In this document: positions 30,944 through 48,967 of the stretch, in pieces
How the letters are laid out: the number at the start of each line of letters is the position of its first letter
How positions within the stretch are numbered: the first letter of the stretch is position 1
Assembly (NCBI GenBank): GCA_046290465.1
Contig: JBKAGP010000001.1
Span: 3,632,270-3,696,269, forward strand
Reading direction: 5' to 3'
DNA: 64,000 bases
DNA from: Planctomycetota bacterium
GTDB taxonomy: Bacteria; Planctomycetota; UBA1135; UBA2386
Program-made: the position numbers and the translations under genes
The notes under the pieces: generated by a model
Told to the model about the DNA's origin: nothing
The model's input: only the letters and a program-made list of their open reading frames with translations
Databases searched by the model: none

Positions 30944-31015
30944 CGTTGCGTAGCTCAATGGTAGAGCACGGGACTGTTGATCCCGGGGTTACGGGTTCGA
31001 ATCCCGTCCAGCCGA
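30944..31015 (+). tRNA. tRNA-like element, Asn(GTT)-like, with non-pairing acceptor stem (possible pseudo-tRNA)
   Basis: Canonical D-arm TAGCTCAATGGTAGAGC, anticodon arm CGGGA-CTGTTGA-TCCCG and T-arm ACGGG-TTCGAAT-CCCGT. The 5' strand cgttgcg pairs with the 3' strand ccagccg at only 3-4 of 7 positions. Position 37 is G rather than A. Confidence 0.4.
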
Positions 31016-35930: not shown

Positions 35931-36761
35931 ATGGCGCGCGTCGGTGATGGCTATGAGCTCGAACCCGACCAGCTCGACGCGTTCGCGCGCGACGGCTGGG
36001 TGGTGTTGCCGGACTTCCTCGACGAGCAGGAGCTCGCGCCGCTCGAGCAGGCCTACATGCGCCTGCTGCGACGCGAGGTACCGGTCACCGGTCGCGACTA
36101 CTGCGACATGACCGGCAACTACGCGCGGCCGATCGAGCAGTTCGAGATCCTCAACGTGATGCTGCCGCGCACCTACCTGCCGGACCTGCAGGGCAACGTC
36201 TACGAACGGCGCGCCGCGGACGTCGTGCGGCAGCTGCTCGGGCACGGCTTTGCGATCGACTACGACCAGCTGGTCGCCAAGCCACCGCAGCGCCACGGCG
36301 CGGTGTTCGGGTGGCACCAGGACCTGGGCTACTGGCCGATCACGCCGGACACCCGCACCGCCACGTTCTGGCTGGCGCTCGACGACGTCGCCGACGACAA
36401 CGGCTGCGTGCGCTTCGTCGACGGCTCGCACCGCGAACCGGAGCTGCGGGAACACGTGCCGCTCCAGGGGGACCGCGACGAGAACCACTCGCTGGTCGCC
36501 GAGGTCGACCCCCGACGCGACCGCATCCGCAGCGCGGCGATGAAGCGCGGCTCGGTGACGGTGCACCACGAACGGACCGTGCACGGCTCGGCCGGCAACC
36601 ACAGCGACCGCTGGCGACGCGGCTACGTGCTGGCGTTCCGTTCGCAGGCGACGATCGCCGCCGAGCGCGCGATGGGCTTCACGCACTCGCACAACGACGA
36701 GGTCGAGGTGCTGACGATGATCGGCGAGCAGACGCGCCGCCGGCAGGCGCGCCGGGACTGA
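35931..36761 (+). CDS. phytanoyl-CoA dioxygenase (PhyH) family Fe(II)/2-oxoglutarate oxygenase
   Basis: HQDLGYWP..D facial-triad region, distal H..G.N.S motif (VHGSAGNHSD) and R..Y 2OG-binding residues. Confidence 0.8.
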   Translation: MARVGDGYELEPDQLDAFARDGWVVLPDFLDEQELAPLEQAYMRLLRREVPVTGRDYCDMTGNYARPIEQFEILNVMLPRTYLPDLQGNVYERRAADVVRQLLGHGFAIDYDQLVAKPPQRHGAVFGWHQDLGYWPITPDTRTATFWLALDDVADDNGCVRFVDGSHREPELREHVPLQGDRDENHSLVAEVDPRRDRIRSAAMKRGSVTVHHERTVHGSAGNHSDRWRRGYVLAFRSQATIAAERAMGFTHSHNDEVEVLTMIGEQTRRRQARRD

Positions 36762-36865
36762 CGGCGGTCGCGGCGGCCGGCTCGCATCCGCCAGGACAGC
36801 GATCCACTGGCTCGCCTGGGGCCGCGGCCCCCGGCCAAGGCGACGGGCTCGCGGCCCCATTCCGA

Positions 36866-37064
36866 ATGCACGATCGTGCACGCGAGCACTGCCACCGCCC
36901 GCCATGCCGTGGTCACGAGCACATGCATGCACGTTCGTGCATCCCAATGGCGAACGGCCCCCCAATCCAACGCGCCGGGGCCGCGATATGCATGTTCGTG
37001 CATTGCGTCTTGCGCTCAGGCCCCAGATCGCCGATCTTCCGCCATGACATGCACGATCATGCAT
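36866..37064 (+). promoter_or_regulatory. array of four 16-bp palindromic operators (consensus ATGCACGnnCGTGCAT) at an exact 61-bp period upstream of and overlapping the hipB start
   Basis: O1 36866-36881 atgcacgatcgtgcac. O2 36927-36942 atgcacgttcgtgcat. O3 36988-37003 atgcatgttcgtgcat. O4 37049-37064 atgcacgatcatgcat (overlaps the hipB ATG). The sequences between sites are unrelated. Confidence 0.7.
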
Positions 37065-37279
37065 TTCCACAATCGCTCGGCGAACGCCTCCGCCAACGCC
37101 GCGCCGAGCTCGGGCTGAAGCAGGTCGACCTCGCCGAGCTCGCCGGCTGCTCGACCCGCTTCGTGCACGCAGCGGAGGCCGGCAAGCCGACCCTCCGACT
37201 CGACAAGCTGCTGCAGCTGCTCGACGTGCTGGGCCTGCGGCTGGTCGTCGAGCCCGCGCACGGAGGCGATCCCCGATGA
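37049..37279 (+). CDS. hipB: HipB-like XRE-family HTH antitoxin
   Basis: 76 aa. HTH LRQRRAELGLKQVDLAELAGCSTRFVHAAEAGK. Stop overlaps the hipA ATG (ATGA). Confidence 0.75.
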   Translation: MHDHAFPQSLGERLRQRRAELGLKQVDLAELAGCSTRFVHAAEAGKPTLRLDKLLQLLDVLGLRLVVEPAHGGDPR

Positions 37280-38517
37280 ACGCCCCCGACTACCGGCGGG
37301 TCGCGGTCGGCGCCGTGCACAAGGCCGGCGAACCCGCCGCCCGCCTGACCCGCGAAGCCGACGGCGGGATCACGTTCTGCTACGAGCCCGGCTACCGCGG
37401 CCCCGCCGTCGCCACGTCCCTGCCGCTCGGCGCCGAGCCGGTGCGCACCGTCGGCGGCGCGCTGCCGCCGTTCTTCAGCGGCCTGCTGCCCGAGGGCCGG
37501 CGGCTGACCGCCATCCGCAGCGCGGTGAAGACCTCGGCCGACGACGAACTGTCGCTGCTGCTGGCGGTCGGCGCCGACGTCGTCGGCGACGTCCAGGTCC
37601 TGCCCGAAGGAACCTCCGCACCGCCCGACGAGCAGACCCAGCCCAAACGGCAGACCCAGGCCCACCAGCAGATCCAGGCCGTCGGCTCGTTCGCGGACGT
37701 GTCGTTCCGCGAAGTGTTCGAACGCGCAGTCGGCCCGGAGGCCGAAGACCGCACCGCGCTCGCAGGCGTGCAGGACAAGGTCTCCGGCCGGATGATCTCG
37801 CTACCGGTCGAACATCGCGACGCCGCCTGGATCCTCAAGCTCGATCCCCCCGAGTTTCCGCACCTGGTCGCCAACGAAGCGTTCTTCCTGGCGGCGGCGC
37901 GCGAGTCGGGGCTCACGGTCGCCGAGGCGCACGTCGTGCACGACCGCGACGGCGCACCGGGACTGCTCGTGCGTCGCTTCGACCGCGTGCCCGGCGACGA
38001 CGGCCGGACGCTCGAGCCGCGCGCCCAGGAGGACGCCTGCCAGGTGCTCGGCCGCTACCCCGCGGACAAGTATCGCCTGACCACCGAAGAACTGATCGCC
38101 GGCCTCGCCGCACGAACGGGCGCACCGATCGTGGCCGCACGCACGCTGCTGCAGCAGCTCGCGTTTGCCTACCTGAGCTGCAACGGCGACGCCCACGGCA
38201 AGAACTTCTCGATCGTGCACACCGGCACGGAATGGCGCGTCTCCCCGGCCTACGACCGGCCCTCGACCCATCCGTATCGCGACGTCACGATGGCGCTGCC
38301 GATCGCCGGCAAGGACCGCGAGGACATCGGCCGCGCCGACTTCGTGACGGCGGGCGAGGCCTGCGGCGTGCCCGCCCGCGCCACCGCGCGGATGCTGGAC
38401 CAACTGGTGAGCACGGCACCGCGCTGGCTCGAGCGACTGCACGAGCTGCCGTTCGACGGGCGTGCGGTGCACAAGCTCGAGAAGGCGTGTCGGTATCGGC
38501 TGGAGCGGTTGCGGTGA
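37276..38517 (+). CDS. hipA: HipA-family serine/threonine kinase toxin
   Basis: HipA C-terminal catalytic motif LSCNGDAHGKNFS plus an N-terminal HipA_N-like region. 413 aa. Confidence 0.85.
   Translation: MNAPDYRRVAVGAVHKAGEPAARLTREADGGITFCYEPGYRGPAVATSLPLGAEPVRTVGGALPPFFSGLLPEGRRLTAIRSAVKTSADDELSLLLAVGADVVGDVQVLPEGTSAPPDEQTQPKRQTQAHQQIQAVGSFADVSFREVFERAVGPEAEDRTALAGVQDKVSGRMISLPVEHRDAAWILKLDPPEFPHLVANEAFFLAAARESGLTVAEAHVVHDRDGAPGLLVRRFDRVPGDDGRTLEPRAQEDACQVLGRYPADKYRLTTEELIAGLAARTGAPIVAARTLLQQLAFAYLSCNGDAHGKNFSIVHTGTEWRVSPAYDRPSTHPYRDVTMALPIAGKDREDIGRADFVTAGEACGVPARATARMLDQLVSTAPRWLERLHELPFDGRAVHKLEKACRYRLERLR

Positions 38518-48890: not shown

Positions 48891-48967
<77 letters not shown>

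Follow-up and report, generated by a model that had tools for sequence, protein, structure and literature searches.

How the HipA kinase is silenced and then released is still debated, and the model developed for Escherichia coli relies on higher-order complexes of HipA, HipB and operator DNA. The locus analysed here, a hipBA toxin-antitoxin pair found in a stretch of 64,000 nucleotides from a Planctomycetota bacterium (contig JBKAGP010000001.1, positions 3,632,270 to 3,696,269; hereafter the window), raises this question in a geometric form: four near-perfect palindromes occur at exactly equal intervals in front of hipB and on its start, and one may ask what binds them, how they relate to the promoter and whether their spacing matters. 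The reading that we favour, with a probability of about 0.8, takes the region for the one through which a type II hipBA operon regulates itself, with each palindrome bound by HipB and the whole forming an ordered multi-unit complex.

A hipB-hipA module preceded by a regular array of palindromes

The two genes constitute a canonical hipB-hipA module and an ordinary member of the HipBA family. The hipB product carries a helix-turn-helix (HTH) domain, the recognition helix of which lies around S35-A44, includes H40 and displays the motif S-x-R-F-V-[H/Y/R]. The start of hipA overlaps the hipB stop by 4 bp (ATGA) and its product has matches to Couple_hipA and HipA_C that both exceed the curated cut-offs. 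In E. coli HipA, D309 is the catalytic Asp, D332 binds Mg and a Gly-rich loop has the form GxQxK. Residues D305 and D327 of the HipA studied here align with D309 and D332, and G164/Q166/K168 with the loop, all five being invariant in 32 family members; the motif LSCNGDAHGKNFS corresponds to residues 300-312. An earlier note, made from the window sequence alone, had recognised a hipBA pair in canonical arrangement, and domains, overlap, catalytic Asp and motif all agree with it.

The same note had described four palindromes at an exact 61-bp period and had argued that they did not arise as a tandem duplication. Their coordinates hold: the sites (O1 to O4, see Table 1), which follow the pattern ATGCAYGWTCRTGCAY, start at 36866, 36927, 36988 and 37049 with a start-to-start spacing of 61/61/61. 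With at most one mismatch to ATGCACGNNCGTGCAT, the window contains four matches when 0.04 are expected, a number that was reached in 0/100 shuffles; all four are located within one intergenic region and no further copy occurs elsewhere in the 64 kb at this threshold. When up to three mismatches were allowed, five matches were found for 5.36 expected, which is chance level, so that the signal is carried by the near-perfect copies and by their clustering. A repeat finder returned a single 17-nt family spaced by 61/61/61, and the 45-bp spacers have no mutual similarity beyond this 16-17-nt unit, in line with the argument against a tandem duplication.

Recurrence of the palindrome and of its period in relatives

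For HipA, 3041 homologues could be detected; the closest of those that bear a name come from Planctomycetota metagenome-assembled genomes and from Planctomycetes bacterium Poly30, a cultured relative with 65% HipA identity. A scan with a HipA profile, using one genome per species, gave 80 loci at 45-70% identity in Planctomycetota, Gemmatimonadota and several Actinomycetota orders, nearly all of which have a HipB homologue directly upstream. The same palindrome, with the core TGCACGATCGTGCA, occurs in their upstream regions, usually three times and in 60-62-bp steps. When sites were chained with up to 3 mismatches over the 10 specified core positions, 50 of these 80 loci had three or more sites in a chain, separated by steps of 60 (31 cases), 61 (72), 62 (10), 63 (4) and 64 bp (3). 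After addition of metagenomes this was the case for 66 of 99 non-redundant loci, with steps of 59 (2), 60 (41), 61 (94), 62 (10) and 63 bp (1). Three sites are the norm in this clade and four, as in the window, are rarer.

The period does not depend on the motif chosen for the search. Pairs of any similar near-palindromic 14-mers in the upstream regions fell with few exceptions into two offset ranges, 60-62 (53 pairs) and 120-123 (25 pairs); coding DNA of the same loci, taken as a control, only yielded two unrelated pairs, at offsets 21 and 53. A period of 60-61 bp is also kept with wholly different operators, as found in L071 and L062 (…GAAAACGTCA…), L075 (GTTGACCATTAGGA) and L078 (TCGTGnGGATTAGG), in Nocardia farcinica (TTATCGTTGT…, period 60/60) and on an Arthrobacter plasmid (CGGCA-N6-TGCCG, period 61/60). 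Among individual relatives, L211, which comes from another metagenome and has a HipA 98% identical and the same gene neighbourhood, carries four sites at 61/61/61, L212 three sites at 61/61 and L213, a 74% relative, four sites at 60/59/60. Genes next to the latter two modules are unrelated to those of the window, and since neighbourhoods differ between relatives, the array belongs to, or travels with, the hipBA module.

The recurrence of the spacing in orthologous loci, which the earlier note had suggested looking for, is thus clearly positive in 66/99 loci from three phyla and is stronger than expected. As far as can be judged from these sequences, the 60-61-bp array has the look of a self-repression switch whose geometry is fixed and which has been conserved in at least three phyla, and not of a curiosity confined to one genome. 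The regulatory region of the window is a typical representative of a large clade, with one site above the usual three.

Conservation of the sites and covariation with HipB

Comparison of the window with L211 from O1 to O4 revealed substitutions at 0 of 64 operator positions and at 12 of 135 spacer positions (Fisher p=0.010), with no indels and with the predicted -35 and -10 hexamers free of substitutions, a pattern indicating that the operator sites are under purifying selection. Loci were further classed by the majority base at operator position 2 (and the complementary one at position 15). At the place of H40 in the alignment, HipB has His in 43 of 45 loci with T, Tyr in 23 of 25 with C and Arg in 5 of 5 with G, these counts not being independent as operator classes largely follow clades; such covariation is what a direct contact between residue 40 and base 2 would predict.

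Because they recur in orthologues, are invariant relative to L211 and covary with the recognition helix, the palindromes are supported as predicted HipB operators, and neither as a tandem duplication nor as a dispersed repeat. Every computable element thus speaks for the HipB-operator reading put forward from the window alone.

Predicted promoter and transcription start, and the start codon of hipB

When every spacer was searched explicitly for a -35/-10 pair, one was located in the last spacer only, with a mean best score of 6.3 compared to 3.1 in upstream spacers. Similarly, -10-like hexamers (TAnnnT or GAtnaT) starting at spacer position 46-48 were found in 22 of 36 last spacers and in 7 of 42 upstream ones. 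The promoter is not visible in a left-aligned consensus of all last spacers, where it is blurred by the mixture of 60-, 61- and 62-bp steps. In relatives, 5-10 nt (mostly 6-8) separate the end of the penultimate operator from a TTGACx-like hexamer, which at this same offset and in the last spacer only reads TTGACC, TTGACT or TTGACA; from the end of the -10 to the last operator the distance is 6-10 nt (mode 9). The window presents the same layout (O3 – 6 nt – TTGCGC – 17 nt – GATCTT – 10 nt – O4), from which transcription is predicted to start around 37045-37049, at O4.

This position is also that of the hipB start codon. In 28 loci, mainly those of closer relatives, the hipB ATG, in frame, forms the first three bases of the last site, the translation of which reads MHDR[AS]F; in the clade of the window, the last operator specifies M-H-D-[R/H]-[A/S] and is followed by a conserved Phe. 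In nine of these relatives a stop codon lies in frame upstream of the ATG, and there is no alternative start. By these comparisons, the O4 ATG, which is in frame, is the best-supported start of hipB, and the overlap of O4 with the ATG pointed out in the earlier note extends to the predicted transcription start. Since the last operator at about +1 coincides with the ATG and no Shine-Dalgarno-like sequence was found in the 15 nt upstream, a leaderless or nearly leaderless hipB mRNA is predicted for this lineage. Relatives from Actinomycetota also have their last operator in this relation to the -10, but GGAGG and a start codon come downstream of it, so that the conserved feature is an operator at +1 and not an operator on the ATG.

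Longer hipB open reading frames (ORFs), starting at ATG 36992, GTG 36998 or TTG 37010, were rejected because the extension would cover the predicted promoter, because conservation of the protein starts at the O4 ATG (MHD[RH][AS]F) and because of the upstream stop in the nine relatives. Automatic calls of the hipB start disagree on identical DNA (76 amino acids, from 37049, in a Logan contig; 95, from 36992, in the JGI version, L211, position 2217), and in L213 the gene caller started hipB at the ATG of the third operator; ATGs encoded by operators 60 bp apart, a multiple of 3, can mislead gene finders.

Fixed spacing and a proposed repression complex

Upstream intervals have neither a promoter nor a conserved sequence and yet are of the same length, which argues for selection acting on length itself. 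The A/T content of these promoter-less spacers rises and falls with a 10-10.5-bp period, in register with the operators (amplitude 0.076 against a maximum of 0.033 in 2000 within-sequence permutations, p<0.0005), a signature that would be expected of DNA bent with a fixed rotational setting.

Data from two other species make a multi-unit complex plausible. HipB of E. coli binds its four operators cooperatively with HipA as co-repressor (PMC3920265), and the N-subdomain of E. coli HipA dimerises during DNA binding (PMC6581861). In Shewanella oneidensis, the DNA has a bend of about 125 degrees and is contacted by HipA (PMC4150777). By analogy with these two systems, an ordered multi-unit HipA2HipB2-DNA complex would be the most economical model for the window, one in which HipB binding, HipA bridging and DNA wrapping are inferred. 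A HipB dimer would bind each 16-bp palindrome, probably as HipA2HipB2 with HipA as co-repressor. With the core promoter wholly in the last 45-bp spacer, O3 would abut the -35 and O4 would cover the transcription start; occupancy of both would clamp the RNA polymerase site from its two sides. O1 and O2, which are devoid of a promoter and held at 61 bp (about six helical turns), would contribute to a higher-order complex with an ordered structure: adjacent HipA-HipB units would contact each other, the DNA between them would be bent in a fixed rotational setting and contacts between neighbours would dictate the spacing. The outcome would be a cooperative repression sensitive to the toxin:antitoxin ratio, with inactive kinase stored on the DNA.

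Several points weigh against this reading. About a third of the related loci have fewer than three recognisable sites. The hexamers of the window (TTGCGC/GATCTT) are weak matches, with a score of 6 of 12, and a generic sigma-70 scan proposed ATGACA-18-CACAAT at 37044-37073 instead; this candidate was rejected because transcription would then start inside hipB and because L115, the closest relative with a different sequence in this segment, has no -10-like hexamer there. A period of 61 bp corresponds to 5.8 turns of relaxed B-DNA and to exactly 6 turns at 10.17 bp per turn, and alignment of the operators on the same face would need an altered twist. The statistics of covariation and of A/T phasing carry no correction for phylogeny. 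Finally, HipB of S. oneidensis alone showed no cooperativity on a double operator (PMC4150777), and cooperativity, if any, must therefore come through HipA.

A bolder version of the complex, which we consider rather unlikely, combines a wrapped nucleosome-like "repressosome" on a phased array with a helical-phase rule common to HipBA clades. Three or four HipA2HipB2 units may occupy ca. 183-244 bp of DNA overwound to ca. 10.17 bp per turn, which would bring the operators in phase; this assembly may shut the promoter and sequester inactive kinase, its formation and dissolution acting as a switch to dormancy. HipBA clades appear to use quantised operator periods (ca. 27.5, 39, 50 and 61 bp, each about 11 bp longer than the one before) and, if true, this would mean that contacts mediated by HipA between neighbouring complexes obey a common helical-phase rule.

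Other explanations of the array

Among alternatives, the one that survives best, although improbable, is that the regular array is a relic of the tandem duplication of a 61-bp operator-plus-promoter unit, the spacing having no function of its own even if the sites bind HipB. The constant unit length fits with such an origin, as does a number of units that varies from 2 to 4 between relatives, and upstream spacers faintly echo the last one, with a G/C trough at 43-46, A/T at 47-49 and, in the 7 of 42 cases mentioned above, a -10-like hexamer at the promoter position. Spacers are however unrelated both within and between loci. Steps of 60-62 bp are held down to ca. 44% HipA identity, in three phyla and through complete operator replacement, where neutral spacers would gather indels, and other HipBA clades keep different but equally strict periods (see below). 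A duplication would explain how the array arose and not how its period is maintained.

A second alternative is that some regulator different from HipB (global, stress-related or the repressor of a mobile element) binds the palindromes and acts on hipBA from outside. As an exclusivity test, metagenomes were scanned at the DNA level only for pairs of the 12-bp core. Of 120 loci, 37 adjoin hipBA; the remainder corresponds to microsatellites, REP-like (repetitive extragenic palindromic) hairpins, tandem arrays, coding DNA and truncated contigs, and a core pair was found on seven viral contigs without hipBA. A 12-bp core pair was on this ground rejected as a diagnostic for hipBA, and its occurrence at 60-62 bp away from the module (L087/L126; cgGCACGnnCGTGCcg pairs in L207-L210, L116 and L136) would suit an external regulator. 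Against this, the sites of the array are always immediately upstream of hipB or on it whatever the neighbouring genes, the outer operator base tracks a residue of the HipB recognition helix, the operator is wholly replaced in distant HipB lineages with the layout kept, and 37 loci retrieved by DNA pattern alone lie next to hipBA. HipB is thus preferred as the ligand, and we regard the involvement of an outside regulator as very improbable.

Least credible of all is the idea that the palindromes, which are perfect hairpin-formers and share their 12-bp core with REP-like (gtagggacGCACGGTCGTGCgtccctac), tandem-array and microsatellite-like matches of the scan, are a dispersed family of REP- or MITE-like (miniature inverted-repeat transposable element) hairpins or RNA or single-stranded DNA hairpins lying beside hipB by coincidence, since the window holds no further copy, matches away from hipBA are heterogeneous with differing flanks, O1-O3 are upstream of the predicted promoter and so outside the hipBA transcript, and upstream genes differ among relatives.

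Some of the pairs found away from hipBA deserve mention in their own right. The related cgGCACGnnCGTGCcg palindromes are paired 60-62 bp apart on viral contigs (L207-L210) as well as on L116 and L136, which are metagenome contigs, with no hipB or hipA detected nearby, and may belong to another repressor family with similar site and spacing. In L087 (2193-2264; L126 is its reverse complement), an orphan [G/A]TGCACGATCGTGCAT pair 60 bp apart has a TTGACT after it, as hipBA promoters do; no hipBA is present downstream, where the next gene is an unrelated ORF of 331 amino acids on the other strand, and this pair may be the remnant of a lost module. The REP-like element gtagggacGCACGGTCGTGCgtccctac, which has a long stem, occurs as inverted pairs ca. 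60 bp apart in seven metagenome contigs (L091, L094, L095, L112, L198, L201 and L203) and, apart from the 12-bp core common to hipBA operators, is unrelated to them.

The HipA kinase and other features of the window

Features of the hipBA locus are listed in Table 1.

Table 1. Positions of the hipBA genes, palindromic operators and predicted promoter elements in the window
Feature	Coordinates	Strand	Remarks
Operator O1 ATGCACGATCGTGCAC	36866..36881	.	Most distal; extra fourth site, absent from most relatives (mostly three)
Operator O2 ATGCACGTTCGTGCAT	36927..36942	.	All 14 specified bases of the palindrome pattern matched
Operator O3 ATGCATGTTCGTGCAT	36988..37003	.	6 nt between its end and the predicted -35
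Predicted -35 TTGCGC	37010..37015	+	Inferred from position; unchanged relative to L211 while flanking spacer bases differ
Predicted -10 GATCTT	37033..37038	+	17 nt after the -35; 10 nt before O4/ATG
Operator O4 ATGCACGATCATGCAT	37049..37064	.	At predicted +1; also hipB codons 1-5 (M-H-D-H-A)
hipB	37049..37279	+	XRE/Cro-type HTH antitoxin-repressor of 76 amino acids; Pfam HTH_31 (E=4e-11), HTH_3
hipA	37276..38517	+	HipA-family Ser/Thr kinase toxin of 413 amino acids; HipA_C (PF07804, E=4.6e-43), Couple_hipA (PF13657, E=2.2e-17)

The Ser that is autophosphorylated in E. coli (S150) and S. oneidensis (S147) HipA has no counterpart at the aligned position of the window HipA, which is occupied by Ala161 (37756-37758). 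Ala is also the family consensus at this place (DRxALAGVQDKVSGRM), and an invariant Ser170 is found nine residues downstream. Control by autophosphorylation of the P-loop may thus differ in this HipA clade; the P-loop Ser is a regulatory feature and not one that defines membership of the HipBA family. The gene also contains an in-frame 18-bp tandem repeat (37631-37680; 2.8 copies, consensus AGCAGACCCAGGCCAAAC) whose product is a stretch rich in Gln, Thr and Pro (EQTQPKRQTQAHQQIQA) within the linker that joins the N- and C-terminal domains and which explains the ca. 10-15 amino acids by which this HipA exceeds those of relatives.

The module is flanked upstream by a gene for a PhyH-family dioxygenase (35931-36761) and downstream by a convergent gene. 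Between the stop of the former and O1, G+C-rich inverted repeats occur at 36812-36859, including the perfect palindrome GGGGCCGCGGCCCC (36818-36831), with no T-tract; they may form a hairpin akin to a terminator that shields hipBA from read-through coming from upstream. Elsewhere in the window, a tRNA at 30944-31015 was detected by an Rfam match (56 bits) and not by ARAGORN, and a tRNA-Val(TAC) at 48891-48967 adjoins the only low-GC stretch (46-48 kb; GC 0.59 against ca. 0.70), which may be an integration hotspot or an island.

Significance and comparison with known hipBA systems

The operator code, the 60-61-bp period and the layout with an operator at +1/ATG appear not to have been described before; a search of the papers accessible to it returned no description of the operator motif, of a 60-61-bp class, of HipB operator spacing of this kind or of a leaderless hipB. 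A rigid 60-61-bp period that persists, in a large hipBA clade not described before, across three phyla despite operator replacement provides evidence from natural variation that multi-operator geometry is under selection. The data also propose a predicted code for HipB operators, with His, Tyr or Arg at residue 40 for T, C or G at base 2, and offer a case in which an operator writes the start codon and the N-terminus (MHD[RH]). They provide experimental handles in the form of spacing mutants, specificity swaps between residue 40 and base 2, and a compact fragment of ca. 200 bp for cryo-electron microscopy.

The closest solved HipA by sequence is that of S. oneidensis MR-1 (SO0705/SO0706; PDB 4pu3-4pu5; E=1e-19), although the alignment is highly divergent and spans residues 61-350 of the 413 of the query. 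In that species, four GTGTA-N6-TACAC operators have uniform gaps of 34 bp between them, the fourth being located inside hipB (Wen et al. 2014, PMC4150777). The window resembles it in having four evenly spaced copies of a 16-bp palindromic operator and differs in the operator itself (ATGCACG-N2-CGTGCAT), in the period (61 bp with 45-bp gaps, compared to 50 bp with 34-bp gaps), in a last operator that begins exactly at the ATG and the predicted +1, and in the replacement of S147 by Ala161. An Aeromonas relative has sites at 614/664/714, i.e. a 50/50 period.

In E. coli K-12 (b1507/b1508), hipB is likewise upstream of hipA and overlaps it, HipA is a co-repressor and four palindromic HipB operators surround the promoter, the -35 and -10 lying between operators. 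These operators, measured here as TATCC-N8-GGATA (18 bp) with a centre spacing of 28/39/28, are all upstream of the ATG, and E. coli hipBA has a leader whereas the hipB mRNA of the window is predicted to be leaderless. HipA shares 27% identity between the two (E~1e-14) and HipB is a marginal match (23% identity, pairwise E=0.012).

For HipB, the best solved match is HipB(Lp) (8ezt, E=5e-7) from the three-component HipBST system of Legionella pneumophila and E. coli O127. HipT and HipS of this system match the C- and N-terminal parts, respectively, of the window HipA, which unlike them is not split: the kinase is a single polypeptide of 413 amino acids with both Couple_hipA and HipA_C, encoded in a two-gene operon.

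In a small survey of plasmid hipBA loci, periods of 49-50 bp were found in Tistrella, Rhizobium and Acidovorax and of 27/27/27 on a Citrobacter plasmid. With the other-clade loci included (L221, L083, L215, L219, L220, L222, L216 and L217), arrays upstream of hipB were regular in every clade sampled, with clade-specific periods of ca. 27.5, 39, 50 and 61 bp, which differ by ca. 11 bp or about one helical turn. The array of the window had been called analogous to that of E. coli but unusually regular; the analogy stands, while S. oneidensis and the clades with 27-28- and 49-50-bp periods show that regularity is not unusual. The distinctive trait of the present clade is its 60-61-bp period, not regular spacing itself.

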